Source: a virus (lineage: Duplodnaviria > Caudoviricetes). Taken from it: 34,823 nt of DNA. The notes beneath the pieces were generated by a model. The model did no database searches. It worked only from the letters and a program-made list of their open reading frames with translations, and had not been told where the DNA came from. The position numbers and the translations under genes are program-made. Location of the stretch: positions 1-34,823 of the IMG/VR virus record IMGVR_UViG_3300031260_000115. One strand, written 5' to 3'. Shown here one piece after another: positions 4,787 to 29,010 of this stretch. Every line of letters begins with the position of its first letter. Position 1 is the first letter of the stretch.

Positions 4787-4789
4787 AGA

Positions 4790-4800
4790 TGCGTATATAG
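4790..4800 (+). promoter_or_regulatory. Putative late promoter motif TGCGTATATAG, copy 1
   Basis: The identical 11-mer occurs at 4790, 20078 and 23696, each just upstream of a structural gene block. Confidence 0.65.
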
Positions 4801-4819
4801 TCCGGAGGAACACCGGATT

Positions 4820-5251: not shown

Positions 5252-5262
5252 GAGATACAGCA

Positions 5263-6624: not shown

Positions 6625-6630
6625 GCAGGG
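6615..6630 (+). promoter_or_regulatory. Post-VR hairpin CCCTGC-GTAA-GCAGGG (candidate DGR target-recognition stem-loop)
   Basis: Perfect 6-bp GC-rich stem with a 4-nt loop overlapping the target stop codon. Absent after the TR. Confidence 0.7.
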
Positions 6631-6690
6631 CGAAAACGAAAACGAAAAAAAATGATGGAAACAGGTTGTCATCTCATGAGCGTGCTGTTC

Positions 6691-6794
6691 GGCAGTTCGG
6701 CGAATAATGGTTCGAATGCAGGTTTCGGCTACTCGAATACGAATAATACGCCCTCGAATGCGAATGCGAATATCGGCTCTCAGCTAAGCTGTTT
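6691..6794 (+). ncRNA. DGR template repeat (TR), part of the DGR RNA
   Basis: Nine AAT codons in the VR reading frame and 27 adenines, 17 of which are substituted in the VR. Lies between the target and the RT. Confidence 0.95.
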
Positions 6795-6891
6795 AAATGA
6801 AGAGATGAAACCCTGCCGCCTGGCAAAAAACAAACAATCCGAAACGGGTGCCGGTAGTTTCGGCGAAGGTTCCCGGATGGACAGCAGAATA

Positions 6892-7872
6892 ATGAAACGA
6901 GTGAATCATCTGTTTGAGCGGATCGCGGATTTGGAGAATCTGCGCCGCGCCGATGAAAAGGCGCGTAAAGGCAAACTGAAATCATACGGCGTCCGGAAAC
7001 ACGATCAAAATCGGGATGCAAACATCCACGAACTGCACCGGGCGCTGCTGGCCGGGACGTATAAAACATCAAAATACCATGTATTCAGCATGGTGACCGA
7101 TGCCGGCAAAGAGCGCACAATTTATCAACTGCCGTATTATCCGGACCGCATCCTGCATCACGCGGTGATGAACGTGATGGAGCCGGTCTGGATGCAGCTG
7201 TTCACGGCGGATACCTATTCCTGCATCAAGGGCCGCGGCATACACGGCGTTGTGCGCAAAATGAAAGAGACTCTCAGGAATGTCGATGGCACGGAATACT
7301 GCCTGAAACTGGATATCCGCAAATTCTATCCGTCGATCGATCACGATATTCTAAAAGTCATGCTGAGGAAGAAAATCAAGGACAACCGATTACTGGCCCT
7401 GCTGGATGAAATCATAGACAGCGCTCCGGGCGTGCCGATCGGCAATTATCTGAGCCAGTTTTTCGCCAATATTTATCTGGCCTATTTTGATCACTGGATC
7501 AAAGAGGATCGCCGGATTGAGCATTATTTCCGCTATGCCGACGATATCGTGATTCTGCATCCGGATAAAACGGTCCTGCACAGCCTGCTGAGAGATATTC
7601 AGAGCTACCTGCGGGACAACCTGCGGCTGGAGGTAAAGGGCAACTGGCAGGTGTTTCCGGTGGATTCGCGGGGCATTGATTTCGTCGGCTACGTTTTCCG
7701 TCATTCGCACGTCCGGCTGCGTAAATCAATTAAACAATCCTGGGCGCGCAAGGCGGCCCGGCTGCGGCGGAAGAACATCAGCCCGGACGATATGCGGCAG
7801 GCGCTGTGCAGTTATACGGGCTGGGCGTCGCACTGTGACGCCCGGAATCTGGTGAGGAGGCTGGCGGTATGA
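6892..7872 (+). CDS. DGR reverse transcriptase (~326 aa)
   Basis: Motifs DRILHHA, YCLKLDIRKFYPSIDH, GVPIGNYLSQ (DGR-type SQ), YFRYADD, GIDFVGY. Start placed at MKRVNHLFE because the upstream in-frame extension is the TR. Confidence 0.95.
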   Translation: MKRVNHLFERIADLENLRRADEKARKGKLKSYGVRKHDQNRDANIHELHRALLAGTYKTSKYHVFSMVTDAGKERTIYQLPYYPDRILHHAVMNVMEPVWMQLFTADTYSCIKGRGIHGVVRKMKETLRNVDGTEYCLKLDIRKFYPSIDHDILKVMLRKKIKDNRLLALLDEIIDSAPGVPIGNYLSQFFANIYLAYFDHWIKEDRRIEHYFRYADDIVILHPDKTVLHSLLRDIQSYLRDNLRLEVKGNWQVFPVDSRGIDFVGYVFRHSHVRLRKSIKQSWARKAARLRRKNISPDDMRQALCSYTGWASHCDARNLVRRLAV

Positions 7873-8171
7873 AAGCCTTCCGCGACATGGGAATCAAGCC
7901 GCAGCATCAGCTGTTTGTCGGCGACAAAATCAAGATCAGCAAGGTGCTGAACTGCGAAATTACTGTCTCTGATTTTTCGGTGTCGGACAGCAAGTATCCG
8001 AAAAACAAATCAGGGAAACTGCTGACGCTGCAGATTGAACTGAACCGTGAGCCGCATGTGGTATTCACGGGATCGGACGTGCTGCTCGATCAGATCGGCC
8101 AGGTGCAGAAAGAGGATTTTCCGTTTCTGGCGACGATTGTGCAGAACGGTGAGCATTTTGAATTTCGATAA
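7869..8171 (+). CDS. Hypothetical beta-rich protein coupled to the RT, candidate DGR accessory protein
   Basis: ATGA overlap with the RT stop. 100 aa with alternating hydrophobic strand patterns, unlike the all-helical Avd. Confidence 0.7.
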   Translation: MKAFRDMGIKPQHQLFVGDKIKISKVLNCEITVSDFSVSDSKYPKNKSGKLLTLQIELNREPHVVFTGSDVLLDQIGQVQKEDFPFLATIVQNGEHFEFR

Positions 8172-8182
8172 GGGGGAAGTAT

Positions 8183-8524
8183 ATGAATAAGGTGCAATAT
8201 AATTCGGAGCCGCAGCAGCTGCAGCGATACCCTGACGGATCGACCCGTTTCCGCTGGGACATTGAGGCGGTTACAAACGATGACGGCGATACGCTGTACG
8301 CCTGCTATGAGTGCGTGATCCACACCACGCCGACGCCTGACAACATCCTCCGCGCGGCGATCAATGCGATGTGGCCGCGTGATACCGAGGGCAAGCTGAC
8401 CAGCGACTACAACGCGGCTGTTGCCGGGATTCTGGACGAGTCGTACAAACAGCCGTACCTGGATTTTCTGACCGAACGCGGCGCTTTGAAGGTGACGATT
8501 AACGCTTATTTTCAGGGGGAGTAA
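8183..8524 (+). CDS. Hypothetical protein (possible tail-fibre chaperone)
   Basis: 113-aa ORF with a GGGGG-type RBS, in the operon after the DGR genes. Function is guessed from position only. Confidence 0.6.
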   Translation: MNKVQYNSEPQQLQRYPDGSTRFRWDIEAVTNDDGDTLYACYECVIHTTPTPDNILRAAINAMWPRDTEGKLTSDYNAAVAGILDESYKQPYLDFLTERGALKVTINAYFQGE

Positions 8525-8845
8525 ATGCCGGATTATATTGTTCCAGAGGAACTGCTGAAGAGACTGCTGAACGAGGCGGCGCAAACCGCGGTGAAGCAGT
8601 TTGACCTGGAACATCCCTGCCGGCTGTCGCCGGAAGAGCGCGGTGTGGTGCATTCGCTGCATGAGGCAATGGCGGAAGAGGGCGCGAATCACGGCACGAT
8701 TCGCGTAATTGTCCAAATCGGCAAATCATTTCAGGATGTTACGCGGAGTTTCCGACGAGCGTTCGTTGTTATCCTGATTCTGAGTGCCTTTGCGGTCGTC
8801 ATGCTGTTTTTCGGCCGGGAAGCGGCGCTGAAGTTTTTGAAGTGA
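8525..8845 (+). CDS. Membrane protein with one C-terminal TM helix, possible holin
   Basis: Hydrophobic stretch AFVVILILSAFAVVMLFFG preceded by basic residues, at the end of the late operon. Confidence 0.5.
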   Translation: MPDYIVPEELLKRLLNEAAQTAVKQFDLEHPCRLSPEERGVVHSLHEAMAEEGANHGTIRVIVQIGKSFQDVTRSFRRAFVVILILSAFAVVMLFFGREAALKFLK

Positions 8846-9574: not shown

Positions 9575-9684
9575 CGTGTCGCAAATTGGCGCAATAGTAT
9601 TTTAAACCATACACATACCGTACACATTTGCTCTATAATCAAATAAAAATCCTTTAAATATTGGTTTTTATTCATGACAGCAAA

Positions 9685-9751
9685 CTCAACTGGATAGAGC
9701 ACCTGACTACGAATCAGGAGGTTACAGGTTCGACTCCTGTCGGGTGCACCA
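9685..9751 (+). tRNA. 3' 67 nt of tRNA-Arg(ACG): attP core fragment, not a complete tRNA
   Basis: Most of the D-arm CTCAACTGGATAGAG, anticodon arm CCTGA-CTACGAA-TCAGG (ACG at 9709-9711), T-arm ACAGG-TTCGACT-CCTGT, 3' CGGGTGC-A-CCA. The expected 5' acceptor strand GCACCCG is missing. Confidence 0.9.
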
Positions 9752-9758
9752 CTCTTAT

Positions 9759-9784
9759 AAACCCTGTTTTTACAGGGTTTTTTT
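9759..9784 (+). terminator. Intrinsic terminator after the tRNA fragment
   Basis: AAACCCTGT-TTTT-ACAGGGTTT followed by a T-run. Confidence 0.8.
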
Positions 9785-9878
9785 ATTATCCCGGCTTTTG
9801 ATGCGCCGCGTCTGTTTTTTTGTCTTTAGTTGGCGCAAGTTGCGGTTTACCGTACAGACTCCATACAAAGGAGCGGGC

Positions 9879-11084
9879 ATGAAGATTCCCTACGGTTATT
9901 TGTACAAGCGGGCCGGCGGCAAAAGATTCTCCAGGGACTCAAAAAGAGCGGCCATTTTCTATTTTTCGAATCCGGGCCCGGACGGCAGGGAGCATCCGGT
10001 GTCGCTGCGGACGACGGACCGTGAGACGGCGGAACTCCGGGCGGTCGAGATGTGCGGACGAATGAAGCTTACAAATGAAGAGGAGTGGCTGCACAGTCTT
10101 GTTGATCTCGGTCAGTGGGCGAAGGAACGGTTGTCCGGTGCAACGGTGTCAGTGGAATTTACGAAGGTATGGGCGGCATATACCGCATCCCGTCGCCGTC
10201 CGGCGAGCGGGGAGCGGACGCTGAAACATTACGGGGTGATCTGGACGCAGTTTACGAAATGGTGCAGAGGATGTTTCCAGACGCTGGAAGCCCTGGATGC
10301 GGGCACCTGCGAACGGTATGTGGCGCATCTGGAAAACCGGCTGAAAGAATCCAGTATTAAGAAGCATCTGGCGACGCTGAAGCTGATTTACCGGGTTGTA
10401 TGTCCGGATGCAGTGAATCCCTGGGACGGTCTGCAGATAATGAAGCAGAGCCGCACGGTGAAGAAGCGTGCGCTGGATCCGGATGAGGTGAAGCGGATTA
10501 TTGCGAGTTCACTGGCGTTTGAGGTGGTGGATAAGCGCTATACGGAGCGGCATGTGGTCAGTCCGCCGAATATCGGGAGGGAGTTTGCCGGTCTGCATCT
10601 GACGGGATACTGGACGGGCTTGCGGCTGTATGATGCTGTGCATCTGTGCGGGGAGCTGATTGACCGGAATCTGTGGGTCATCCGGATTGTGCCGAAGAAA
10701 ACCGGCCGCCGGAAAGTTGATCCGCTGGAGATTCCGGTTTCCGCGGAGCTGCAGGATTGGTTTGAGGAGTATGCACCGCTGCGCGGGCAGGTGTTCCCGC
10801 TGCTGACCGCATTATACGACGGGACGTCCGGGGGCAGGCTCAGCGAATATCTGGCGCAGATCTGGGCAGACGCCGCCGTGAAGGACGATGAACGCGGGAC
10901 GGCCAGTTTCCATTCCCTGCGTGTTACTTTCCAGTCGCTGAATGATGCCGCGGGCACGAGCAGGGTGTTTACACGGGCGGTGACAGGGCACAGCGGGGCG
11001 AAGATGAGCGATACCTACAGCCGGCAGAATACGGAAGCCGTGAGGACCGCGGTGGGGCGGGCGCTGCCGGAGGTGCTGAAATGA
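9879..11084 (+). CDS. int: Tyrosine recombinase / phage integrase (401 aa)
   Basis: Catalytic motifs TGLR, K (PKKTG), HSLR, GH, Y (SDTY). AAGGAG RBS before ATG 9879. Next to the tRNA core. Confidence 0.93.
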   Translation: MKIPYGYLYKRAGGKRFSRDSKRAAIFYFSNPGPDGREHPVSLRTTDRETAELRAVEMCGRMKLTNEEEWLHSLVDLGQWAKERLSGATVSVEFTKVWAAYTASRRRPASGERTLKHYGVIWTQFTKWCRGCFQTLEALDAGTCERYVAHLENRLKESSIKKHLATLKLIYRVVCPDAVNPWDGLQIMKQSRTVKKRALDPDEVKRIIASSLAFEVVDKRYTERHVVSPPNIGREFAGLHLTGYWTGLRLYDAVHLCGELIDRNLWVIRIVPKKTGRRKVDPLEIPVSAELQDWFEEYAPLRGQVFPLLTALYDGTSGGRLSEYLAQIWADAAVKDDERGTASFHSLRVTFQSLNDAAGTSRVFTRAVTGHSGAKMSDTYSRQNTEAVRTAVGRALPEVLK

Positions 11085-16085: not shown

Positions 16086-17282
16086 ATGAATAAGGGACGG
16101 TACCGCGGGCATTATTATCAGCAGCTGAATCATCAGCGGATCGGGATGATGGCGCAGGGGCTGCCGGCGGTGGAGACGTCGGTCTGTTTCAAGGCGCTGC
16201 TGCTGGTCGGACAGACCCGGCAGCAATATGATTTGGCGGACGGAAGCCTGTCGGTGACCGGGGCAAAGATGAAGTCGGCGGATTTTGCGCAGTGGATTGC
16301 GGGGGTTACTCCGCAGGTGTCGGTTCCGCGGGCACAGAAGGCGATTGAGACGCTGTGTTCCGCCGGTCTGCTGGCTGTTACGAAGGCGGGATACATTAAG
16401 GTCCATGGCTGGGCGCAGGACCAGGGCGGAGCGCCTACGGCGGCGGCAGAACGCAAGAGGAGGAGTCTGGCCGCCCGGCGGCTGGCCAATGCCCGCGACG
16501 GGCTGGCCGGATATGCCGGCACGGTGTTTGAGGCGGATGATTTAATTTCGGCGATTTGCACGGCGACGAAGTACAGTCGGAAAATTTCCGTGGGTATCCT
16601 GAAGGAGCTGTCGGACGCCGGGGATGTTGTGCCCGCGGAGGGTGGACGGCTGTGTGTGCAGGCGTGTGTTTCGAGTAAGCCTGCCGCGCCTGCGGCGCTG
16701 CTGCCCCCCCGTGAGAGTGAGGGCCCTGACGGGCGTGAGAGCGGGTGTGATATGTCACAACCTGACGGTGTGACATATCACAATCATTATAATCATATTC
16801 ATAAAAGAGATTCTAACGAATCTCATGATCATGATGCGCGCGCGGATACCCGCGCTTATGAGGAGTCGCCCGAACCGCCGCTGCGCGCCGGTTCAGGTCC
16901 CGCCGACTCCATGAGGATGATCGGGGGGGGCAGCAGCGCCGCAGGCGCGGGCGTTCCGCCGAACCGTTCTTTTTCATCCGGCGGTTCGCGCGGGATCGAT
17001 GTGTGGAGTGTTGCCGATGATTGCCTGCCGGAGACGGCCTGTCGTATTTTCCAGCCGAACGAGTGGGCGAAGACACGCGGAATTCTGGAGTCTAAGCTGC
17101 TGAATTTACGGCGGCAGTTCGGTCCGCAGCAGGCGGGCATTATTTTCCGCGAGGAGGTTTCCGGGGTGCAGACGGATGTGATGTGTCCTGGGGCCCGTGA
17201 GCTGCGTTTTCCGGAGCGTGAGCTGTGCGCCCGGCTGAATGAACGGATGGGCAAACCGCGGCGGAAGGAAAGGGTGGCATGA
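16086..17282 (+). CDS. Phage replication initiation protein (replisome-organiser / lambda O-like)
   Basis: N-terminal wHTH-like AIETLCSAGLL..TKAGYIKVHGW..DQ….AERKRR. Low-complexity linker containing DNA repeats and an AT-rich tract. Confidence 0.65.
   Translation: MNKGRYRGHYYQQLNHQRIGMMAQGLPAVETSVCFKALLLVGQTRQQYDLADGSLSVTGAKMKSADFAQWIAGVTPQVSVPRAQKAIETLCSAGLLAVTKAGYIKVHGWAQDQGGAPTAAAERKRRSLAARRLANARDGLAGYAGTVFEADDLISAICTATKYSRKISVGILKELSDAGDVVPAEGGRLCVQACVSSKPAAPAALLPPRESEGPDGRESGCDMSQPDGVTYHNHYNHIHKRDSNESHDHDARADTRAYEESPEPPLRAGSGPADSMRMIGGGSSAAGAGVPPNRSFSSGGSRGIDVWSVADDCLPETACRIFQPNEWAKTRGILESKLLNLRRQFGPQQAGIIFREEVSGVQTDVMCPGARELRFPERELCARLNERMGKPRRKERVA
16746..16782. repeat. Perfect 14-bp inverted repeat inside rep, putative origin
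   Basis: TGTGATATGTCACA-N9-TGTGACATATCACA followed by an AT-rich tract (16783-16815). Confidence 0.65.
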
Positions 17283-17602
17283 TGATTTGCAAAGTCGAAT
17301 TGAAGCATGAGCTGGAGCAGTCGCTTGAAGCGGGAATGATGACGGAGCGGTTTGCGGTGCTGGCGGAGGAGATTGTCCGGGGATATTTCAGCCAGCGGAG
17401 CATGAGCGGATATCCATCATCTGTAAAAGATGAGTTTCTAAGTGAGTTTCGCCACCGAATTGTCAGGCACTGGAAAAAAATTGATCCGGGTCTTAATCCA
17501 TTTTCAGCGATTACTCAACAGGGGAAATGGGCTGGAATGACTGTTATTCGAAAATACAAAACCAGGAAAAGACTGATTGAAAAAATGGTGGATAATAAAT
17601 AG
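17279..17602 (+). CDS. T4 gp55-like minimal sigma factor, putative late transcription factor
   Basis: SGYPSSVKDEFL…WKKIDPGLNPFSAITQ…IRK parallels the recalled gp55 core FSGY…KxEMI…FD…NPxAYxTQ…RI. Last early gene before terS. ATGA-coupled to rep. Confidence 0.62.
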   Translation: MMICKVELKHELEQSLEAGMMTERFAVLAEEIVRGYFSQRSMSGYPSSVKDEFLSEFRHRIVRHWKKIDPGLNPFSAITQQGKWAGMTVIRKYKTRKRLIEKMVDNK

Positions 17603-17629
17603 CCGGAATTATTTAACGGGCGGCAGGTT

Positions 17630-18229
17630 ATGGCAAAAAAGGCAGTAGACAAAAGTAGACAGGCGGCGAAGAAGAGCACGGGGAAGAAGCGGACGGCGGC
17701 GAAGAAGCGGCGGGCACAGCAGCGTGCGGCGGCGAAACCGCTATCTGAACGGGCGCTGAAGTTTGCGCATGAGTATGCGGCGCACGGACTTAACGGAACG
17801 GCGGCGGCGATTGCGGCCGGGTATGCCGAACGGACGGCTAATCGGCAGGCGAGCCGGCTGCTGGATGATCCACGGGTACTGAAGCTGATTGCCGAGGTGG
17901 TGGCGGTGCCGCTGGCTGTTGCCGAGGTGACAACGGAACGTGTGCTGCAGGAGCTGGCGGCGATTGCGTTTGTGGATCCGGCGGACATCTGGGAAGACGG
18001 CGGTACGATTCGGAATATTTCGGATATCCCGACGCAGGCGCGGCGGGCGATTGCGGGCATCAGCCGCCGGGATACGAAGGAAGGAATAAGTATTGCGCTG
18101 AAGATGCACTCGAAGCCGGCTGCGCTGGAGACGCTGGGTAAATATCTGCGGATGTTCGGGACGCAGCTGCCGGAGGTTCCTCCCGGATCGCATGTTGATT
18201 TCCGCATGGTGGTGCATAAGGGGGATTGA
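17630..18229 (+). CDS. terS: Terminase small subunit
   Basis: KFAHEY…NGTAAAIAAGY..RTA…ASRLL..P.V, ERVLQELAAIAF, K..ALE.LGKYL.MF. Confidence 0.92.
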   Translation: MAKKAVDKSRQAAKKSTGKKRTAAKKRRAQQRAAAKPLSERALKFAHEYAAHGLNGTAAAIAAGYAERTANRQASRLLDDPRVLKLIAEVVAVPLAVAEVTTERVLQELAAIAFVDPADIWEDGGTIRNISDIPTQARRAIAGISRRDTKEGISIALKMHSKPAALETLGKYLRMFGTQLPEVPPGSHVDFRMVVHKGD

Positions 18230-19635
18230 TGGCCGTTGTCGTTAAAGAGGTGCCGGTGACCGTTAATTATGAGCGGCTGGTTAAAACGACATTGCCTGAA
18301 TATACGGAATGGCTGAATACGGAGCATCCGGCGCATCCTGCGCAGCGTCTCGGCGGATGGAATATGCCGGGTCAGCCGTACCGTCCGACCCGCAAGCGGT
18401 ACAGTGTTCTGGAGGGCAGTTCAGGATCGTCGAAGACGATTTCAATTCTGCAGTATCTTATCTCGCATCATCTTCTCCGTCGTAAAAAGATCCGGGTGGA
18501 CTGTTTCCGTCATGATCAGTCAACCTGCAATGATTCGGTGGTTGATGATTTCATGTTTGTGATGGGCCCGGACGGGTTTGACCTGTGGGATGACCGGGCG
18601 TGGAACAAGCAGCGGCTGGAATACCGGTTTTCGACGGGTTCGCGGCTGCGGTTCAGGGGATGCCAGAAGCCGGGCAAGCTGCACGGTCCGCGGCGGGATA
18701 TCGCCTGGCTGAATGAGGTGACGGAAATCTCGTATGAGAGTTTCCGGCAGATCAATGCGCGGACGAATGATTTCATTATCATGGATTTCAATCCGTCGCT
18801 GTCGGTGCACTGGGTGTTTGAGCGCATTCTGAAGCAGGCGGCGGACCGGGTGGATTATTTTCATTCGACGTTTAGGGATAATCCGTTCATCAGTCCGGAA
18901 TCCCGCGCGGATATTCTGAGCTGGGAACCGACGGTGGAGAATATCAAGGCCGGGACGGCCGATAAGTGGGCGTGGGAGGTTTACGGACTCGGCAAGCGGG
19001 CGCGGCGTGAAGGGGCGATATTCAGCAACTGGAAGGTTCTGGAGGATGAGCAGTGGCCGAAGCAGCTGTATGCGCGGCAGCGGGACGGGCATTTTGTGGA
19101 TTTCGGTTTTTCGCAGGATCCGACGGCGGTCGGGCGGTCGTTTCTGCTGCGCGACTGTCTGTATGTGCGGGAGATTGTCTACGAGACGGGCCTGATTACG
19201 ACGGTGAACCAGACGAACCCGGATAAACCGAGCCTGGAGCTGCGGCTGAGGGAGGCAATAGAGGTTGGTCTGTTCGATCCGGACCTTGAGCTGGTCGGTG
19301 ATGCAGCGGCAGCGGAGGAGATTGCGGACCTGCAGGCGAGCGGATTCAATGCGGTTTCGTGTGAGAAGGGTGCCGGATCAATACAGTACGGGATCAACCT
19401 GCTGAAACAATTCACGATCTATGTTCACCGTGACAGTACGAATTTCCAGAAGGAGCTGGAGAATTACGCCTGGAAGAAGATGCCGGACGGGACGTTTTCG
19501 GATGAACCGGAGGACCGGTTTAATCATTTGATCGACGGACTGCGCTACTGGGGGATGCGCAACCTGAAACCGCGGGCGCTCGCTGTGAACCGCAACCGCT
19601 ATCGCAGCCATGCGGCGCGAAAGCTGAGGAGGTGA
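18226..19635 (+). CDS. terL: Terminase large subunit, PBSX/SPP1-like
   Basis: Walker A-like EGSSGSSKT, Walker B AWLNE, DFNP, STFRDNPF, nuclease DFGF..DP and NHLIDGLRY. Confidence 0.94.
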   Translation: MMAVVVKEVPVTVNYERLVKTTLPEYTEWLNTEHPAHPAQRLGGWNMPGQPYRPTRKRYSVLEGSSGSSKTISILQYLISHHLLRRKKIRVDCFRHDQSTCNDSVVDDFMFVMGPDGFDLWDDRAWNKQRLEYRFSTGSRLRFRGCQKPGKLHGPRRDIAWLNEVTEISYESFRQINARTNDFIIMDFNPSLSVHWVFERILKQAADRVDYFHSTFRDNPFISPESRADILSWEPTVENIKAGTADKWAWEVYGLGKRARREGAIFSNWKVLEDEQWPKQLYARQRDGHFVDFGFSQDPTAVGRSFLLRDCLYVREIVYETGLITTVNQTNPDKPSLELRLREAIEVGLFDPDLELVGDAAAAEEIADLQASGFNAVSCEKGAGSIQYGINLLKQFTIYVHRDSTNFQKELENYAWKKMPDGTFSDEPEDRFNHLIDGLRYWGMRNLKPRALAVNRNRYRSHAARKLRR

Positions 19636-19639: not shown

Positions 19640-20176
19640 ATGACGAGGAACGGCGATGTGTTTATTCACTTGGATCCGATGCCCGGCGAGGTGCTGGGGG
19701 TATACAGAGAATTATGCGGGGAACTGGATTTCTTGCCGGAGCATCTGCGGTCGGAGGACGGATGGATGGATTATTTCCAGCCGCGCGGTCGGCGGGACAT
19801 CGCGTTCTGTCCGGTGGTGATCGAAATAGATGGTCGCTTTCCGGTGATCATCTGGATGACGGACTACTGCGCGGACAGCCGTTCGGCGCAAATCCATTTT
19901 GCGGCGCACGGACGGTACAGGCTGAAGACGGTTTTCGGCACGGCGAGGCTGGCGGTGAACATGATACTCGGTTCGCGTGAAATCGATCTGCTGCAGGCGT
20001 TTTATACTCCAGACAACCGGCGGGCGGCGCATGCGGCCGCAGAGATGGGGTTCCGGATTTATGCGCGCACTGCGCGCTGCGTATATAGTTTTGCTGCGCG
20101 ACGCGGCACGATGAATTCCAACGGAGGGTTAAATGGGCAAGAGCAAGAAGCCGAAGAAGATCGAACCGGAGGTTGA
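19640..20176 (+). CDS. GNAT-fold (acetyltransferase-like) protein
   Basis: AQIHF…A….DNRRA…A..MGF matches the RimJ-type GNAT C-terminal motif. Confidence 0.6.
   Translation: MTRNGDVFIHLDPMPGEVLGVYRELCGELDFLPEHLRSEDGWMDYFQPRGRRDIAFCPVVIEIDGRFPVIIWMTDYCADSRSAQIHFAAHGRYRLKTVFGTARLAVNMILGSREIDLLQAFYTPDNRRAAHAAAEMGFRIYARTARCVYSFAARRGTMNSNGGLNGQEQEAEEDRTGG
20078..20088 (+). promoter_or_regulatory. Putative late promoter motif TGCGTATATAG, copy 2
   Basis: Identical 11-mer, 44 bp upstream of the first head-module gene. Confidence 0.6.
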
Positions 20177-20336
20177 ACCGGCTCCCGTGACACCGGAGAG
20201 CGAAGAGGTTGCAGCCGCGGCGGATGCCGAACGGCGGAGGCTGCAGAAGCAGCGGGGCCGGGCGAATACCTATCGTGTCAATCCGGCCTACAGCGGGCAG
20301 TTTGTTAATTCCCTGAAAACAAAGACGGGTGACTGA
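20133..20336 (+). CDS. Small virion assembly protein preceding portal (T7 gp7.3-like position)
   Basis: GGAGG RBS, MG-K/P-rich start, basic helix. Its stop overlaps the portal ATG. Confidence 0.7.
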   Translation: MGKSKKPKKIEPEVEPAPVTPESEEVAAAADAERRRLQKQRGRANTYRVNPAYSGQFVNSLKTKTGD

Positions 20337-22012
20337 TGGCCAAAACGATTGCAGAGAAGATTATCCGGACGCGGGATGACCTGAAGAGTAAGCGGAGTAC
20401 GTACAAGACGCTCTGTGATGAAGCCTGCCGACTGTTCAATCCGGAGATGGAGGATTTGATGTCGAATACGGAAGGCTCAGAGATTCTGCAGCCGATTGTT
20501 TCGACGGGCATTCTGGCACAGGAACGACTTACAGCGGGACTGTTTTCGAACACGATGAGCATGGGCCGCGGAAACATCAAAGACGAAGATCCGCGGAAGA
20601 TGAAGAGTGCGTCGGTGAAGCGGTTTTATACAGCGCTGGGCAAGGAGACGCATCAGCGGATACAGACGAGTCCGTTTCCTGAGAAATACAATTCGATGCT
20701 GGAAGGGTTTGATGTGCGCGGGGAAGGGGTTATGTATGTGCATTTCAACCGTGAAACCCGGCAGCATGAATATATGGTGTATCCGGCGATCAAATGTTTT
20801 CCGGTACGCGATGTGAAGGGCAGTGTGGTGGAGATGTACCGTGAATATGAGTTGTCGGCGCAGCAGGCGGTGCTGGAGTTCGGGGAAGAGAATGTGTCGC
20901 AGGAGCTGCGCAACGCGTATGATCGCGATGATTATAATCTGAAATTCGAATTCATCCATGCGATGCGACCGCGCAAGGTGAGGGATCGGCGGCGGCTGGA
21001 TGCGCAGAATATGCGCTTCGAGAGCGTTCATATCGAGGTGGCACAGAAGAAGAAGGTTCGTGTTTCCGGTGCACGGCGGATGCGTTATCTGATGCCGAGG
21101 TTTTACGTTCGGGATGATGAAGAGTGCGGACGTTCGCCGGCTATGAGGGCGCTGCCGGTTGCCAGGACGCTGATGAAGGTGGTCAGTGATCATATGGACG
21201 GGGTTGAAATCGGCGTTGCTCCGCCGATTTTCCTGCCGGATAAGGATGCGGTGGAGAGCGCCTGCCTGGAAGCGTTCGGAGTGAATTACTGCGATACGGG
21301 CAAGGGCCAGATTTTCACCTATACCGGCAACGGAAATCTGCAGATGAGTTCTGATTTCATTGATTTTCTGAAGGAAGAACTGAACAAGCTGCATTACGTT
21401 GATCTGTTTACGATGCTGGAGCAAATGAAGGACCGGCAGAAAACCGCGTATGAAATTTCTCAGTTGATCGGGGAGCGCATCCAGGCAATCAGTCCGGTGG
21501 TGAACCGGTTGAGCAACGGATTTTTTGCACCGCTGTATGAAATTGTCGCGGAAGATATCATAGATTACGGCCTGCTGAACGAAACGATTCCACCCGAACT
21601 GCTGGTGGATAAAGGCGATGGACAGGGCAGCGGATTCCGGGTGATCTACACGAGCCGTCTGGATGTTCAGCTGGCGGATATGGAGATATCGAGCCTGTCA
21701 CAGGCTATTCAGCAGGCGGCGGAAATGGTCGCGGGCATTGAGCAGATTCCGCGTCTGGCGGCTGCGGTGAAGATCAGCAAGCTGATTGAGAAGATTTTCG
21801 AGGCAAAGAATGTTGATGTCGAGATCCTGTATACGGAAACCGAAACGGAAGACAATTGGGACGAGTACCTCAAATCGAAGGAAGAAGCTGCGGCACGTGA
21901 ACAGTTAGCCGGGGCCGTCAAACCGGTTGATGTGCAGAAGCGATCGGAAGAGGAGAGCCCTGCGGACCTGGCGGGACAAATGATGGATGAAAATATGACG
22001 GTGGCAATCTGA
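20336..22012 (+). CDS. Portal / head-to-tail connector (T7 gp8/BPP-1-like)
   Basis: 558 aa. STG..A…L.AGL, GRSPAMRALP, TAYEI motifs. Synteny. Confidence 0.9.
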   Translation: MAKTIAEKIIRTRDDLKSKRSTYKTLCDEACRLFNPEMEDLMSNTEGSEILQPIVSTGILAQERLTAGLFSNTMSMGRGNIKDEDPRKMKSASVKRFYTALGKETHQRIQTSPFPEKYNSMLEGFDVRGEGVMYVHFNRETRQHEYMVYPAIKCFPVRDVKGSVVEMYREYELSAQQAVLEFGEENVSQELRNAYDRDDYNLKFEFIHAMRPRKVRDRRRLDAQNMRFESVHIEVAQKKKVRVSGARRMRYLMPRFYVRDDEECGRSPAMRALPVARTLMKVVSDHMDGVEIGVAPPIFLPDKDAVESACLEAFGVNYCDTGKGQIFTYTGNGNLQMSSDFIDFLKEELNKLHYVDLFTMLEQMKDRQKTAYEISQLIGERIQAISPVVNRLSNGFFAPLYEIVAEDIIDYGLLNETIPPELLVDKGDGQGSGFRVIYTSRLDVQLADMEISSLSQAIQQAAEMVAGIEQIPRLAAAVKISKLIEKIFEAKNVDVEILYTETETEDNWDEYLKSKEEAAAREQLAGAVKPVDVQKRSEEESPADLAGQMMDENMTVAI

Positions 22013-22287
22013 TGGCAGTTAGAGCGGACAGGACGAAACGCGGCGGATCGGACGCTGAACAGCGCCGGCGTACGGCACGGTTCAAGAAAGTGTTCGGAAC
22101 TCCGGACGGGCGCAGGGTTCTGGATGATCTGCTGGATCATCTCGGCGTAAACGGCCGGCTGTTTGCAACCGATTCGCGCATTCAGGAACACAATGTGGCG
22201 AGAAACGATTTCGGGGTATGGATTCTGGAGCAGATCAACTGGAAGCCGAAAATGAAATCAAAAGAAGGAGGAGAAACGGATGAGTGA
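22012..22287 (+). CDS. Bbp19-like small protein
   Basis: FKKVFGTPDGRRVLDDL motif, immediately after portal. Confidence 0.7.
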   Translation: MAVRADRTKRGGSDAEQRRRTARFKKVFGTPDGRRVLDDLLDHLGVNGRLFATDSRIQEHNVARNDFGVWILEQINWKPKMKSKEGGETDE

Positions 22288-22690
22288 AATAAAACTGACC
22301 GAAGAACTGATTCTGAGCGGTGAAGTGGATGAAAAAAAAGTCACGGCGAAGGATCTGGACGAGTTTATCGCCGCTGAGGGTCTGGATGTGAAGCCGGGAA
22401 AAACAAAAGCGGATACGCTGAAAGCGATCTACATGGCGTTGACCGTGACCGATGATGATGTCGGAGATGCCGATCTCGAAACTGACGCTGATGAGATCTC
22501 TGGTGATAAGTTAAACGATGCTGCGCCTGCGGCGGTTAGCGGAGATCCGGCGGTGAAGGGATCGAATTATCTGCAACGTCGCGCAAAACAGATTGCCGCC
22601 GGGCGCGGAAATATGGCGGCGATTACGTCCAGGAAGGAAGAGGACGCGAAGAAAAGCAGTTATATCGCCCGGCGTCTGCGCAAAAAATAA
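22280..22690 (+). CDS. Hypothetical acidic protein, possible HeH/LEM-like motif
   Basis: Strong GGAGGAG RBS. TAKDLDEFIAAEGLDV….TKAD.L.AI pattern. Confidence 0.6.
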   Translation: MSEIKLTEELILSGEVDEKKVTAKDLDEFIAAEGLDVKPGKTKADTLKAIYMALTVTDDDVGDADLETDADEISGDKLNDAAPAAVSGDPAVKGSNYLQRRAKQIAAGRGNMAAITSRKEEDAKKSSYIARRLRKK

Positions 22691-22701
22691 AGAGGTGATC
22701 T

Positions 22702-23673
22702 ATGCTGAAATTCATATTGTCGATGTATGTCCCGATGCTGCTGTGCGGCCTGGTCGGGTTTGCTGAAGAGGGCGGAGGAGAAGGCGATGCCGGAGGTGCG
22801 GCAGGAGGAGAGGGTGATCCGGGCGGCACAGGTGAAACCGTTGATAACGGGTCTACGGTATCACGTGATCTGACCCATGATGAGCAGATCAGTTCCAGCC
22901 GCAAGGCGGCGGAGAAACCCTGGTATGAAGGGCTGGTTTCCGATCCGGCTGTTTTGACAGATAAGGACCGTGAATACAAAAGTTTCGATGAGTATGTCAA
23001 GGGGGCCCAGAACGCGCGGCAGCTGGCGGCGGCCAAGGGGATACCGATTCCGGGCAAGGATGCGACGGATGAACAGAAAGCGGCGTTTCGAGCGGAGGTG
23101 CTGAAGCATTTTCCGGATCTGCCGCTGGCTCCTGAATCTGCGGACGGCTATGAGCTGGAGATGTTCAAGGATTCGGAACTGGGCGAAGAGCGGCAGACGG
23201 CGATCAAGACGTCGTTTCACAAAGCCGGTCTGAGCAATGCGCATGCGGGTGCCGTGATGGATATTTATGCGGAGCAGGTGGCGCAGGACATGCAGGAGGC
23301 GCAGGCGCAGATTGAAGCCACGCGCAAAGCGACGGACGCGGAGCTGAAGAAAGAATGGGGCCCCGAATATGATGAGCGCACGGCGGGCATACAGACGGTT
23401 GAAAAACGGTATGCCGGGTTTGTGGAGAAGGCCAAAGCCTATGGACTGGATGCGGATATCGATTTCAGGCATATGCTGGATGATGTGGCGCGCAGTACCG
23501 CCGAGGATAATCCGGGCGGCGGCGGTTCGGGCGGTGAATCGGTGGATGAGCAGATAAAAACGGTACGCGCCAGCGATGAATACCGGAACGGAAATGCATT
23601 GACACGGCAGCGGGTGATTAAAGAAAAACTTGAACCGCTGTATAAAAAAAGGGAACAGATGCGCAAAAAATAA
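22702..23673 (+). CDS. Capsid assembly scaffolding protein
   Basis: Gly/acidic N-terminus, P….GYEL, GLS..A, LKKEWG.EY motifs. Precedes the capsid gene. Confidence 0.85.
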   Translation: MLKFILSMYVPMLLCGLVGFAEEGGGEGDAGGAAGGEGDPGGTGETVDNGSTVSRDLTHDEQISSSRKAAEKPWYEGLVSDPAVLTDKDREYKSFDEYVKGAQNARQLAAAKGIPIPGKDATDEQKAAFRAEVLKHFPDLPLAPESADGYELEMFKDSELGEERQTAIKTSFHKAGLSNAHAGAVMDIYAEQVAQDMQEAQAQIEATRKATDAELKKEWGPEYDERTAGIQTVEKRYAGFVEKAKAYGLDADIDFRHMLDDVARSTAEDNPGGGGSGGESVDEQIKTVRASDEYRNGNALTRQRVIKEKLEPLYKKREQMRKK

Positions 23674-23695
23674 ATAATTGAAATTGAAAGGGTGA

Positions 23696-23706
23696 TGCGT
23701 ATATAG
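23696..23706 (+). promoter_or_regulatory. Putative late promoter motif TGCGTATATAG, copy 3
   Basis: Identical 11-mer in the intergenic region upstream of the major capsid gene. Confidence 0.65.
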
Positions 23707-23733
23707 GCTGAGGGAACACCTCGGCCCTTTTTT
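23706..23733 (+). terminator. Intrinsic terminator-like hairpin after scaffold
   Basis: GGCTGAGG-GAACA-CCTCGGCC (8 bp, one G-U) followed by C and six T. Confidence 0.6.
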
Positions 23734-23870
23734 CGGCCTGAGCCCCTCCATCCGCGTGGAACGCGGCGGGTGGCGGCGGAACCGCAAGCGAGCCCCCTCC
23801 TTCGGAGGAATACGGCGAACGAGTTGGGAGAAATCCCGGTTTGTGAACTGAAAAACTGAAGGAGGAAATT

Positions 23871-24854
23871 ATGGCAAGTCAAAATGTACATATGTTTGAA
23901 CTGTTCAGTGACAACATCACTGACATGCTCGGGGAGCACCCGAACCATTCCATCCTGGCGCATCTGTGCGAGGAAGGGGCCGGATCCGGAAAGGGAGTCT
24001 GGCTACCGGGGCTTGATCCCGGAAACAGCGATGATGCTGAAGGGATCGAACTTTCTGCGGCGGATACGCTGAAAAAATTCCGCCAGCTCGATGACGCGAG
24101 CCAGAGCTGGGAAGAATACAAAAAGACGCTGACGCCGTTCATGGACGTGAGCAAGCTGACAACCTGGAGTTCTCCGCAGCGAAATGAATGGGGCCACACG
24201 ATTGAGGAAGATGAAGAGTGGCAGGAAATTGCTGATCCGAAGAGCTCAACAGTGAATACCGGGATGCGCAAGATCTTTAAAAAGCGCGACATCCGGTTTC
24301 TGCTGGCTGCAACGGCGGCATCAGTCAGCCGGAAGGACAATGACAACGACGCACTGTATGCAATGACGCTGCCGGCGTCGCAGACGCTGGATGACATGAC
24401 CTTTGCCGATGTGACGGTGGATACGCTACCGAGCATGATCCGGCATAAGTTCAGCAATGTGTGGTACGCAATCGGCATGCCGATTTACTGCGCGATCAGT
24501 TCGACGCTGGCATATAACTTCCGCAAAAACAGCCGGAATCAGATTCACAACAACGATTTTGTGAACAGTTATGAACATTTCCGGCAGGGGACGATTCCGA
24601 CGATCGAAGGGGTCACGTTCATTGAAATGCCAGACAGCATCATGGCGAACATTACAGCGGCTGAAGTGGTTGATTCGTATGTGGCCTGGGTGCCGAACGC
24701 GATCAAACGGGTGTCGTATAAGGCGATTAAAACGAGCATGGGCAATTCGATTATGAATCGCGATGCGACGGTGATCTATGTGCGCGAAAAAGAGGATTAC
24801 AAGCGCATCGATGATCTGGGCGTAGTGGTCGGCGATATTATCGCCGCGGCCTGA
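23871..24854 (+). CDS. Major capsid protein
   Basis: 327 aa between scaffold and tail tubular A. Strong GAAGGAGG RBS, downstream terminator, C-terminal RIDD.GVV. Confidence 0.82.
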   Translation: MASQNVHMFELFSDNITDMLGEHPNHSILAHLCEEGAGSGKGVWLPGLDPGNSDDAEGIELSAADTLKKFRQLDDASQSWEEYKKTLTPFMDVSKLTTWSSPQRNEWGHTIEEDEEWQEIADPKSSTVNTGMRKIFKKRDIRFLLAATAASVSRKDNDNDALYAMTLPASQTLDDMTFADVTVDTLPSMIRHKFSNVWYAIGMPIYCAISSTLAYNFRKNSRNQIHNNDFVNSYEHFRQGTIPTIEGVTFIEMPDSIMANITAAEVVDSYVAWVPNAIKRVSYKAIKTSMGNSIMNRDATVIYVREKEDYKRIDDLGVVVGDIIAAA

Positions 24855-24877
24855 TCCGTGTAAATGAAGAGTAAAGC

Positions 24878-24910
24878 AAAGGCGGAGCGGGCGACCGCCC
24901 CGCCTTTTTT
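24878..24910 (+). terminator. Intrinsic terminator after the capsid gene
   Basis: GGCGGAGCGG-GCGA-CCGCCCCGCC followed by TTTTTT. Confidence 0.85.
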
Positions 24911-24927
24911 AAAGAACGGAGGAAAAG

Positions 24928-25554
24928 ATGGCTGTTCCTGAAAATGTTACATCGACACTGGAAGGAGTTGCCAACCTGTCGCTGGGAAAACTGGGGCAGG
25001 CTAAACGGATCACGGATCTGACTGCAGACACGCATCCGTATGCCAAAGAAATCAGGCTGTTTATTTATCAGGTGATCCGCGAGGTGCAGACGGAGTTCCG
25101 CTGGGGAGAACTGACCCGTTCCGTGACATTGGAGGCTCCGGCGGAAGAGGTTGACGGGATCTATCGATACGCGCTGCCGGAGGATTACCTGCGACCTGCC
25201 AGCAACCGGGAACAGAGTTACCGGTTGGAGGACGGTTTCTTATGGACGCCGGTCGAGTCGAATTTCCAATTAAAATACATCCGTTATTCAGTCAATCCGG
25301 AGGAATGGAGTCCGCTGCTGCTGAAATGCATTTATTTCCGGCTGGCAATGGAAATCTGCATGCCGATTACAGAGGATGATAAACGGTATGACAAATTAAA
25401 CAGCGAATATGAAACGACGGTATTTCCGCGGGCACAGCGGATCGCCAGTTTTGACAATGAAAATCCGCGCAGCCGGCGCGCACGCGGGACATACAGCCGG
25501 ACACGCGGCGGGAGTATCCGCAGCGCGTATCCGTATTTTTACAGGGATATTTGA
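24928..25554 (+). CDS. Tail tubular protein A / adaptor (T7 gp11-like)
   Basis: N.SL.KLG…I, W…, YRYALPEDYLR, LKYI…..P..W.P…….RLA.E.C.PIT motifs. Confidence 0.85.
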   Translation: MAVPENVTSTLEGVANLSLGKLGQAKRITDLTADTHPYAKEIRLFIYQVIREVQTEFRWGELTRSVTLEAPAEEVDGIYRYALPEDYLRPASNREQSYRLEDGFLWTPVESNFQLKYIRYSVNPEEWSPLLLKCIYFRLAMEICMPITEDDKRYDKLNSEYETTVFPRAQRIASFDNENPRSRRARGTYSRTRGGSIRSAYPYFYRDI

Positions 25555-28202
25555 TGAGCCGGATCTACAGATACAATCTGAGCGGAGGAGAGATCGGAGC
25601 GGATCTGATTTACCGGTCCGATCTGGAGCATTATCACAAGGCGAACATTATCCAGGAGGGATTTCTGTCGACGCCGTACGGCGGAGTGATGCGGCGTCCG
25701 CCGACGGAGAAACTGACGGTGCACGGTCCGGTGGTGATGACGGTGAACGAAGTTGAGGTTGAATACACGCCGGAAGTGATCCGGTATTTTGATTTCATCT
25801 ATTCGCGCGACACAAAATACATTGCGGCGCTGATCAGTTACCGTGCTGACGAACAGAATTCATTCAGCCGATTTGAAATTTATGATCCGGCTGGAAATCT
25901 GAAGGATACAGTGGACTGCAGCTATGCGGCGCTGAATTTTTTTGAGCTGCATGTGAAGCAGATCAATGATGTGATGTACATTACGCACAACGGCTATCGT
26001 CCGCAGCAGCTGGTGCGCAACGGGGATGATGACTGGGCGCTGGAAGACATGAGAATCAAATCAGGTCCGTTTATGGACTGGAATCAGGATGATAATACCA
26101 CGCTGTCGATTGGCTGCGATGCATACATTTCCACGGAAACATATGCAGAGGGAGATATTGTCCTGTCGACAACAAGCAATCAATCAATCACCGGTGCAGA
26201 ATATGTCTACTGGTACCAGGATGGCGACAGCGATGATAGTCGTTACAGAATCTTTTACCTCACTCGCCTGACGGTTGCTGATCATGGATTATCGACCGGT
26301 GATACAATTATTGTTTCAGGATTCAGCGGGGATGCGGAACCGATTAACGGAACATATCAGGTGAAGCAGGTCTCCTCTTCATCAACGTTCGATATTTACA
26401 GCGGCCGGTATAAGAAAATTGAATATAGTTGGGAAACAGTTTATGGATCATACATCAGAGTAGCAACGACAACGTGGTACAATAATTACCCTCTGCCGAG
26501 TTCGTTCTCAGCAGAAAAGATAACCGTTACCGGAGACAGCACATTTTTCGTTTCACTGCATGATGACAATACAGGGAATTCTCTGCCTGTTTCGGCGGGA
26601 GCTGACAGCCACTGGAAACGGACATCGCTGCCATCAAAACTCAACCTGCAAAGTTCGCAGGATTTGTTTTCAGAAAAAAATGTTGGCCAGAAAATTTATT
26701 TGACGGTGCAGGGAGCCGAGGCGCTGTCCGGGACGTTTGATTCGACTGGAGAAAAATCAGATTTGTTTGTATGCGGTACCGGGTCGGTAACGCTGCGCAC
26801 GGAGGCGGGTGTCTGGGGCGGAAAAATCAGATTGCAGCAGACGATCGACGGCGGGACAACGTTTTCTTCGCTGGGAGTGATCAACGGTGCAAACGGCAAA
26901 CACAACGGGGAGCTGACGCGCGACATCACGGACCCGCGAGCCGCCGTGCGGGCATACATGGAAACCTATTCGGCACCGACCGGTGCAACGGGTTGCATGT
27001 GGCAGCTGGAATTTCCAAATGGATCCTCGTTTATCGGCGAAATAACCGAATACATCAATGCACGGACGGTATCTGTCAAGGCCCAGTCCTCGCTGATTAC
27101 GGTTTTTGAAACTGACGAGTGGCGCTTGGGAGCCTACAGTGATGACAACGGGTATCCCGGAACACTGGCGATCCATGAAGAGCGGATGCTGCTGGGCGGA
27201 ACAACGAAACAACCGTATCGGATTGATGGATCGGAAATCAACAACTGGGATCAGTTCGCCCCGGGTACACTGGACACGTCTTCGGTGACGCTGCAGGCGC
27301 AGGCGGACCGGGCGACGCAGCTGTGCTGGATGGTGAGCAAGGACGCGCTGTTGTTCGGCACGGATTTCAGCGAGTTTTCTGCCGGGCAGCGGGATTCAGA
27401 TGAAGTAATCAGCGCGGAGAATCCTCCGAAGATCCAGCTGCAGAATACATACAGCTCCGCGCCGATCCAGCCGCTGCTGCTGCGCAATGAAGTACTGTTT
27501 ATACAGAACAACTATAAAACGCTGCGAACATTCGCTTATGACAGCTACGCTGAATCAGGATATATCGGCGAGGATAAAACCATATATAATCCAGGAATTT
27601 TCGGAAGCGGAGTGAAGCAGATGGCTCTGCAGATCAATCCGTTTCCGGTTGTATGGTTTGTCACCAATGACGCTTCCGGCGATCTGATTTCGTTTACGTA
27701 CTACAAGGAAATGAACATTGAGGGATTCGGCAGGCATCCGCTGAGCGGCGGACAGGTCGAAAGCCTGTGTATGCTGCCGACGGATGCAGATGATGAAATC
27801 ATTCTGTGCGTAAAGCGCGGCGATATATTCCAGATGGAAAAAATGTCCTATGCAAACACGGTGCATACGGATGACCAGGGCGGGACGGAAACCGCGATTA
27901 CGAGCCTGCTGAAACCGACGAGTCTGCTGCAGAACCAGGAGGTGCTGGAAGAGAAGAAGTACAAAGTGAATGCAGTGTTTCTGTATCTGAAAGCATCGCA
28001 GGGCGGGCAGATTAGCGTGGATGACGGGGAAACGTGGATCGATATAGAGTATCCGTCAGAGGAACTGTTTACCGGCAAAGTCCAGGTGGATGTGATTGCC
28101 GATACGACCGAGACAGCGCCGCTGCAGATCCGCACATCGGGATCGCAGCCGTTCAATCTGCTGGCGGTCGGAATGGATGTGACACTGACGAGCACGGATT
28201 AG
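25551..28202 (+). CDS. Tail tubular protein B / nozzle (T7 gp12-like) with an inserted domain
   Basis: N.SGGEI, YGG..RRP, Q.NDVMYITH.GY.P..L.R, YP……ERM motifs. 883 aa. Confidence 0.88.
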   Translation: MMSRIYRYNLSGGEIGADLIYRSDLEHYHKANIIQEGFLSTPYGGVMRRPPTEKLTVHGPVVMTVNEVEVEYTPEVIRYFDFIYSRDTKYIAALISYRADEQNSFSRFEIYDPAGNLKDTVDCSYAALNFFELHVKQINDVMYITHNGYRPQQLVRNGDDDWALEDMRIKSGPFMDWNQDDNTTLSIGCDAYISTETYAEGDIVLSTTSNQSITGAEYVYWYQDGDSDDSRYRIFYLTRLTVADHGLSTGDTIIVSGFSGDAEPINGTYQVKQVSSSSTFDIYSGRYKKIEYSWETVYGSYIRVATTTWYNNYPLPSSFSAEKITVTGDSTFFVSLHDDNTGNSLPVSAGADSHWKRTSLPSKLNLQSSQDLFSEKNVGQKIYLTVQGAEALSGTFDSTGEKSDLFVCGTGSVTLRTEAGVWGGKIRLQQTIDGGTTFSSLGVINGANGKHNGELTRDITDPRAAVRAYMETYSAPTGATGCMWQLEFPNGSSFIGEITEYINARTVSVKAQSSLITVFETDEWRLGAYSDDNGYPGTLAIHEERMLLGGTTKQPYRIDGSEINNWDQFAPGTLDTSSVTLQAQADRATQLCWMVSKDALLFGTDFSEFSAGQRDSDEVISAENPPKIQLQNTYSSAPIQPLLLRNEVLFIQNNYKTLRTFAYDSYAESGYIGEDKTIYNPGIFGSGVKQMALQINPFPVVWFVTNDASGDLISFTYYKEMNIEGFGRHPLSGGQVESLCMLPTDADDEIILCVKRGDIFQMEKMSYANTVHTDDQGGTETAITSLLKPTSLLQNQEVLEEKKYKVNAVFLYLKASQGGQISVDDGETWIDIEYPSEELFTGKVQVDVIADTTETAPLQIRTSGSQPFNLLAVGMDVTLTSTD

Positions 28203-28210
28203 GATTTATT

Positions 28211-28765: not shown

Positions 28766-29010
28766 ATAAAAACCGGGTGATTACAGAGAGGGTTGTCGAT
28801 CAGATGATGGATCAGTTTTTAAACCGGATGTCCGAGTACTGCGACAGCGTGCAGGTCTTTGCAACGATGCAGGATCGCGGGACAACGTGCCGCAAAGCCA
28901 AAGGGAGCGGGAATTATTATGCGCGGATCGGAGTCTGCCGTGAATTTCTGGACCGTGATTCGGAACTGACCCGTGAAGACGTATCCGGTGAAGAAGGAGA
29001 TGGAGACTGA
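28762..29010 (+). CDS. Hypothetical protein (GSGNYYAR.G motif)
   Basis: ATGA overlap upstream and TGATG overlap downstream. Confidence 0.65.
   Translation: MNKNRVITERVVDQMMDQFLNRMSEYCDSVQVFATMQDRGTTCRKAKGSGNYYARIGVCREFLDRDSELTREDVSGEEGDGD

Follow-up and report, generated by a model that had tools for sequence, protein, structure and literature searches.

A Predicted gp55-Type, Single-Domain Sigma Factor and Its Candidate Late Promoters in a Small, Likely Temperate Podophage

The closest described counterpart of the locus presented here is the late sigma factor gp55 of bacteriophage T4 (7D7C/7D7D; PMC7892883, PMC2988020). In the available sections of PMC2988020, gp55-based late transcription belongs to T4-related phages and is linked to the sliding clamp, and, in the corresponding sections, two reviews associate gp55 with T4-related and with jumbo phages (PMC2988020, PMC7824862). 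The accessible part of the structural work reports that gp55 and core RNA polymerase alone give basal transcription, that tail-less gp55 retains it, that gp33 alone represses, and that open-complex formation is compromised when the helix-loop-helix is lost (PMC7892883). The 107-residue protein described here, P0001, shares with gp55 a predicted sigma-2 fold with an extra first helix and a long fourth helix, the NP.A.ITQ motif, and two of the three acidic residues on the helix-3 face, and its putative promoters are, like the T4 late promoter, −10-only, with T−11 A−10. A−8 T−7 A−6 in common in the register proposed below. However, gp55 has 185 residues, helix 5, the clamp tail, gp33, and gp45 of T4 were not found here, and the 8-bp TATAAATA of T4 contrasts with a 13-bp, GC-containing word at three sites here. 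As several T4 features (helix 5, clamp tail, gp33, gp45, and TATAAATA) are thus missing, we regard the locus as a gp55-lineage variant and not as the T4 late system.

Two other described systems are related in part. Phage phiEco32 (gp36/gp79; PMC12276001) is likewise fairly small, encodes a sigma factor for its middle/late genes, and has a G at a flipped upstream position (−11G), but in a 77-kb genome, with a sigma-4-like domain of gp36 that contacts the −35 element and with gp79 as activator, and the available text of that paper does not describe gp36 as gp55-type. The split sigma factors SigO-RsoA, Tn916 Sig7-8, and SPO1 gp33/gp34 resemble our locus in having a free-standing region-2 polypeptide on a mobile element, but, in the accessible part of the report, need a second subunit (region 4, reading the −35 element, in SigO-RsoA and Sig7-8), and none was found here (10.64898/2026.10.01.756105). 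Known sigma factors of temperate phages are sporulation-like, according to the available sections of PMC9429907, and among open-access titles and abstract openings we found no description of a gp55-type factor in a small temperate phage.

Bordetella phage BPP-1 has a similar virion module (with a Bbp19-like gene) and a tail-gene DGR, but neither a match to our family profile nor a copy of the word described below. The late activators of temperate phages, such as lambda Q, P2 Ogr, Mu C, and RinA, are antiterminators or activators that work on the host-sigma holoenzyme, and their genes close the replication region, just ahead of terS. The gene for P0001 lies in the same genomic slot and has the same predicted job, but its product would replace sigma instead. 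We consider P0001 likely to be a stand-alone late sigma factor that would start transcription at three words, located before the portal, capsid, and tail-fibre/DGR blocks.

Phage Record and Gene Layout

The phage record is 34.8 kb long with direct terminal repeats (CheckV estimate 70%); the window is the whole stretch of DNA analysed, 34,823 nucleotides. Unlike the large lytic T4-type phages, it represents a 35–40-kb-class, integrase-bearing podophage without a recognisable replisome. The gene set comprises a tyrosine integrase adjoining a tRNA-like piece, a C5 methylase, terS/terL, and a DGR, together with podovirus-type portal, capsid, tail, and internal proteins, and, as it includes the integrase and the tRNA-like piece, the phage is likely temperate. 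Near-identical DNA is found in metagenomes from oil-field, sludge, sediment, and soil samples (five studies, not counting the possible source study), and a search of GTDB genomes with the sigma and capsid alignments gave no prophage. The relevant features are:

4820..8845, + strand: tail gene, DGR target gene, reverse transcriptase (6652–7872), and small ORFs; predicted target
9680..11084, + strand: tRNA-like piece (likely attP, with its attachment core at 9680–9748) and tyrosine integrase, pointing to a temperate lifestyle
16086..17282, + strand: 398-residue ORF whose stop overlaps the start of the sigma gene; found in 3 of 10 relatives
17279..17602, + strand: P0001, 107 residues, predicted gp55-type protein with sigma domain 2 only (model, structure and profile searches)
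17630..19635, + strand: terS and terL, by family matches, without the promoter word
19640..20176, + strand: conserved 178-residue ORF containing the portal-block word; in 9 of 10 relatives, no family match
20133..23673, + strand: portal, Bbp19-like, and protease/scaffold-like block, by Pfam/PHROG; predicted target
23871..34821, + strand: block of major capsid, tail tube, and internal virion genes that crosses the terminal repeat and carries on in ORF 86–4786; predicted target

The first-pass annotation had placed the 107-residue gene after rep and before terS. The frame is indeed open and ends 27 nt before terS, but the label "rep" for the 398-residue ORF at 16086–17282 is backed by no Pfam or PHROG match. 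Similarly, in what had been described as a tail/DGR/lysis block, the DGR is real, but the "lysis" genes after it match no named family. Its variable repeat (VR 6499–6614) and template repeat (TR 6679–6794) are identical at 93 of 116 positions, with 17 of the 23 differences opposite TR adenines, as counted by eye. The TR is located within the 5′ end of the longest reverse-transcriptase frame (region 6499–8524), no Avd family match was obtained in the DGR region, and two small ORFs of conserved families (phrog_19665 and phrog_11557) follow. Among the virion genes, a very large predicted internal protein extends across the terminal repeat (86–4786 plus 30514–34821) and has an ART-PolyVal domain at residues 268–399. 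The capsid ORFs of relatives (L001:17557 onward, L005, and L036) have a hydrophobic N-terminal extension that the window capsid lacks, and the first tail gene of relatives starts with a signal-like leader.

The 107-Residue Protein

On its own, P0001 has no Pfam or PHROG family and no PDB sequence match, and tblastn with P0001 or the bridging sequence P0027 against 50,697 phage records found nothing. The AF2 model, built with twenty close homologues of 101–154 residues, has a pLDDT of 91.9 and four helices (5–18, 23–39, 47–67, and 74–106). The best of 48,161 chains in a PDB structure search is T4 gp55 (7d7d_F; Z 12.0, where the tool advises caution with helical bundles below about 13, rmsd 1.9 Å, 106 residues aligned to gp55 10–127); the top 22 rows are all sigma-factor entries, judged by title, and bacterial sigma-2 domains rank after gp55, at Z 8.8 and below. 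Foldseek also returns gp55 as the best PDB match (7d7c_F; TM 0.76, probability 1.00, E 0.058, i.e., above 0.001), and the BFVD match list is filled by viral models labelled sigma or gp55.

In the profile searches, a 21-sequence profile found 251 representatives, and 48 of the 111 scanned (among 150 listed of the 251) match phrog_234, "late sigma transcription factor". A narrow profile reaches gp55 with only 7.6%; a 46-sequence profile reaches it with 88% (E 2.9e-6) and places gp55 on top in a PDB sequence search (E 0.006). The likeness to gp55 and sigma region 2 that the first-pass annotation had read from the sequence pattern is supported, with gp55 first in Foldseek and in the structure search and reached by the profiles. 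Structure and profile searches place the sigma-2 homology domain (gp55 H1–H4) in P0001, and the model supports a gp55-type sigma-2 fold. All 107 residues align to domain 2; regions 2 and 4 in one chain, as in ECF/group 4 factors, are not found.

At the residue level, the core-binding acids, pocket residues, and R114 of gp55 were mapped from the available sections of the structure paper (PMC7892883). Two of the three acidic core-binding residues are kept (E70/E52 and D74/E56, gp55/P0001) and E77 becomes H59, while R114 corresponds to K94. Only T99 among seven pocket residues is identical (T79), the changes being N13/K5, L54/Y36, R57/Q39, F86/I68, H95/F75, and Y97/A77. The match stops at gp55 residue 127, such that helix 5 is absent, as is the clamp-binding tail: 16 residues follow R91 in P0001 vs 74 in gp55, and by eye this C-terminus shows no clamp-type hydrophobic tail. 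A predicted complex of P0001 with E. coli beta-prime 245–330 scores 0.64 vs 0.00 for the best of three controls, passing a mark that 116 of 157 solved pairs attain but just 2 of 215 mismatched ones, although E. coli is a stand-in host and the pass may stem from resemblance to the solved gp55 complex. The runs show at least 94% contact agreement with a partner pLDDT of at least 81, and helix 3 (E52, E56, and H59) is predicted to contact the beta-prime clamp helices.

The Candidate Promoter Word in the Window and in Relatives

The word TGCGTATATAG occurs at exactly 4790, 20078, and 23696, and as part of a fuller element, G-N-TGCGTATATAG, in which the G is present in 27 of 27 sites of this type (9 records):

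4788..4800, + strand: word before the tail-fibre/DGR block; predicted +1 at 4805, then GAGGA and ATG at 4820
20076..20088, + strand: word within ORF 19640–20176, ahead of ORF 20133 and of the portal block, with +1 predicted at 20093
23694..23706, + strand: word ahead of the major capsid block, with +1 predicted at 23711

An exhaustive count over both strands of the window confirms three exact copies, all on the coding strand, and no one-mismatch copy on either strand. None of 100 shuffles reaches three copies (chance mean 0.01). The triple alone is nevertheless not unique, as 30 different 11-mers have at least three copies on the + strand, and the case is therefore carried by position and conservation. 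Among 165 strand-exclusive 10-mers with at least three copies, the word ranks first of those spaced by more than 1 kb. The placement of the 11-mer upstream of three late blocks holds for all three sites, with two qualifications: the 20078 copy sits in frame inside ORF 19640–20176 and not in a spacer, and terS and terL lack the word (the highest PWM score elsewhere is 10.4, vs 21–22 at the sites). The T4 late promoter TATAAATA is absent from the window. A further tripled 12-mer, GAATATGAAACG, occurs at 14589 and 14811, both in the early region, and at 25405, in the tail-tube gene.

In 31 of 34 sites (12 related records), the base 15 nt downstream of the first T (offset 15) is a purine, which follows a pyrimidine-richer spacer, and one ATG in G012 starts exactly at this offset. 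From this purine we infer that +1 is at offset 15 and that the element spans −17 to −5, which would give the register G−17 N T−15 G−14 C−13 G−12 T−11 A−10 T−9 A−8 T−7 A−6 G−5, compared with T−13 A−12 T−11 A−10 A−9 A−8 T−7 A−6 in T4. Five of eight positions would then match TATAAATA, which is itself not found at −13 to −6, and the invariant G−12 and A−8 would fall at the two deep pockets of gp55; T4 relatives vary naturally at −13/−12, according to the available sections of PMC2988020. A register two bases further upstream (offset 9 A as −8; T79 to N or S with A-to-T) was dropped because offset 9 varies, whereas offsets 3 and 7 never vary and are separated by four positions, as the two deep pockets are, and because of the purine step and the leader-free ATG at offset 15. 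As the first-pass annotation had it, there is no shared −35-like element: in an alignment of 23 sites, no base 45 to 4 nt upstream of the word occurs in more than 15.

The capsid site adjoins two further predicted elements:

23706..23733, + strand: terminator-like 8-bp hairpin and U-run straddling the predicted +1, by folding
23711..23870, + strand: conserved structured capsid mRNA leader (predicted; no Rfam family)

The hairpin folds in read-through RNA, and 3 of 8 pairs are left in RNA begun at 23711, while in G008 and G012 a hairpin and T-run lie, by eye, just upstream of the capsid-site word; both layouts are compatible with a stop followed by a restart for the capsid. The leader itself is a predicted multi-hairpin RNA with two-sided changes in 15 of 35 predicted pairs and a GG(A)GGAA(C/U)AC-like loop that is repeated twice, and is possibly a capsid or scaffold feedback element.

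Turning to the relatives, exactly three same-strand copies occur in each of G001–G007 and G010 (8 of 8 longer close relatives), two in the fragments G009 and G011, and none of that pattern in G008, with a reversed-pattern control at zero in all 11 records searched. Wherever mapped, the copies fill the slots seen in the window, ahead of portal block, capsid gene, and tail-fibre gene, and the word is kept in G007 despite a portal that is only 27% identical. It changes in concert at all copies in four lineages, reading TGCGTACATAG three times in G001, TGCGTATATTG twice in G009 and G011, AGTGTATATTA twice in G008, and GGCGTATATA three times in G012. The last of these phages, 36 kb in size and equipped with terminase, portal, and integrase-like genes, was retrieved by distant protein alignment alone (27% identical protein), without use of the word, and GGCGTATATA is its top-ranked de novo 10-mer, in the same three slots. 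In de novo ranking the word comes first in 5 of 10 genomes, within the top four in 9 of 10, and below the top four in G002. We note that the sites are related across records, such that these counts are not independent. The position and strand of the word, its conservation and concerted change, and the structure of its flanks in relatives together support reading it as a promoter.

Of 10 relatives, 9 have the sigma gene and the other is a fragment; it is the only gene between 11,000 and 17,600 common to most of them; no other early gene is common to more than 4 of 10. Neither the gene nor a strand-biased word was found in HTVC010P, epsilon15, phiSG1, BUCT708, or BPP-1, with T4 gp55 as positive control, although these cultured phages are distant (the four other than BPP-1 have portals only about 25% identical), and no close relative without the sigma gene was found. 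The expected co-occurrence of gene and motif thus stands as far as the recurrence of both goes, with gene-less controls provided by distant phages only.

Proteins that are 42–73% identical, with different region-2.3 residues, are paired with one and the same word, and none of the base changes in the word goes with any single residue; H75 was rejected as the determinant of the G001 C-variant, since G006, G008, and G012 have H with T. In phages that are near-identical from terS on, the last two-thirds of the sigma gene are swapped (window 17382–17624; L002:2283–2573; X3 contig) for an allele type with a 64–67% identical protein and extra DNA before terS. The portal-block word of L002 is unchanged despite the swapped allele, and the two allele types, which differ over the DNA-reading two-thirds, share the same word. 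One-mismatch fourth copies are seen in G007 (L003:11433, before an ORF upstream of the portal block) and G005 (L008:10871, before the tail-tube gene), suggesting that sites can be gained.

Seven short low-GC capsid relatives have words with a like core, TGCGTATA in six of the seven and TGCGTATAAT in one, which is marine. The sigma gene is not visible in these 4.6–9.6-kb fragments, which are too short to score it, and a search for longer contigs of this group found none. In the low-GC (41–45%) fragments L038–L045, GCGTATA-core words lie upstream of capsid and other late genes, often right after hairpin/T-run elements, at no more than four positions per fragment.

Helper Proteins, Rival Explanations, and a Proposed Mechanism

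Profile searches with positive controls uphold the initial impression that no gp33 or clamp is evident: gp33 (PF16805) and gp45 (PF09116) are found in none of 4 records at E 0.1, with a positive T4 control, at a depth that very divergent forms could escape, and sigma-4 (PF04545) in none of 6, again with positive controls. With PF04545 at 0 of 6 and no −35 element, the separate region-4 subunit and −35 element of a split sigma were not found, nor was a conserved small partner, as no small early ORF is common to more than 4 of 10 relatives. Because basal transcription needs no more than gp55 and core, and gp33 by itself is repressive, a mode without helpers is plausible in biochemical terms (available sections of PMC7892883). 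Loss of the helix-loop-helix impairs T4, however, and the main rival is therefore a host or hidden co-factor.

This rival, which we consider unlikely, keeps the same sigma and promoters but has them need a helper, either a host factor (the beta clamp, or a CarD/RbpA-like protein) or an unrecognised phage protein that replaces gp33/helix 5. Helix 5, which is missing from P0001, is important in T4 (PMC7892883), the described split sigmas (T4 gp55-gp33, SigO-RsoA, and Tn916 Sig7-8) use two subunits (10.64898/2026.10.01.756105), and phage Mu late genes use the host clamp (PMC12867686), in each case going by the accessible part of the source; in addition, by eye, the window has small HTH/RHH-like ORFs, for example at 14243–14590. 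The searches just described nevertheless gave no PF04545, PF16805, or PF09116 match with positive controls, no small early ORF shared beyond 4 of 10 relatives, and no −35 consensus that a sigma-4 partner could recognise, while the 16 residues after R91 lack, by eye, a clamp-type tail, and the tail-less gp55 of T4 retains basal transcription, according to the available text of PMC7892883.

An improbable second alternative is that the words are read by the host primary sigma as extended −10-like elements, perhaps with another activator, the gp55-like protein serving, for example, in sigma competition. The word does contain TG and a TATA-rich core, and the marine relative has TGCGTATAAT. The extended −10 consensus is TGnTATAAT, and the spacing of the word does not fit it. 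In addition, a sigma-70 scan flags neither of the two sites covered, the genome-wide concerted word changes go with divergent proteins, and a constitutive host promoter before virion genes would presumably be costly in a lysogen. Least credible of all is a word that acts as an operator or RNA signal (a repressor or processing site) and is no promoter, since, even though one copy abuts conserved RNA structure and one lies within coding sequence, the word is strictly oriented and non-palindromic outside its TATATA core, a purine start follows at a fixed distance with short leaders (once directly at ATG), and terminator-like elements precede the word in two relatives.

We return to P0001 as a probable stand-alone late sigma, the interpretation that the first-pass annotation had put forward and that fold, homology, conserved words, and absent helpers largely support. 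After induction, the sigma gene would be expressed towards the end of the rightward early transcript, along with terS/terL, which, having no word of their own, would share the sigma-gene transcript. P0001 would dock on the clamp helices of the host RNA polymerase core (the sigma-2 site) and initiate at the G-N-TGCGTATATAG sites, with +1 at 4805, 20093, and 23711, opening three promoters for the head, capsid/tail, and tail-fibre/DGR blocks. G−12 and A−8 would enter two deep pockets, and the long helix 4 would read the upstream G-N-TGC as duplex DNA, this extra information substituting for the boost provided by gp33 and the clamp. At the capsid site, the start inside the terminator hairpin would let upstream RNA stop and the capsid mRNA begin anew, and the DGR reverse transcriptase and template repeat would be expressed late via the 4790 site, offering a concrete candidate for the timing of a phage DGR.

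If this is correct, a single-domain sigma replacement joins the late switches of temperate phages (35–40 kb, clamp-free, and gp33-free) and sets a lower bound on what a sigma needs. A broader proposal, which we advance tentatively and with somewhat more doubt than conviction, is that these proteins of about 100 residues are complete, helper-free sigmas (core binding, melting, and a 13-bp promoter) that form a wide family in small temperate phages, that gp55 with gp33 and the clamp is an elaborated offshoot, and that the protein/word pairs form a readable recognition code. To our knowledge, helper-free sigmas of about 100 residues would be smaller than any known. The system offers a direct test of whether a longer −10 element can do without helix 5 and a domain-4 surrogate, and the five natural word variants, each paired with a protein of its own, permit swaps that address sigma-2 specificity and suggest compact orthogonal expression tools.

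In a quick, midpoint-rooted tree (161 rows and 105 columns, with 10 fragment or repeat rows excluded), the small-phage proteins split from the gp55 group with an SH-aLRT of only 91, a split that sets no direction of descent. Of the scans aimed at more distant subgroups, one added a single new phage and another nothing new. The apparent absence of fused late sigmas is discussed in the available part of PMC2988020. We observe in the same tree an 18-row clade (SH-aLRT 98; including P0048, P0057, P0064, P0067, P0072, P0074, P0082, P0107, and P0109) of proteins mostly 173–214 residues long, with a gp55-type domain 2 and a C-terminal helix-turn-helix, which are candidate natural fused late sigmas.
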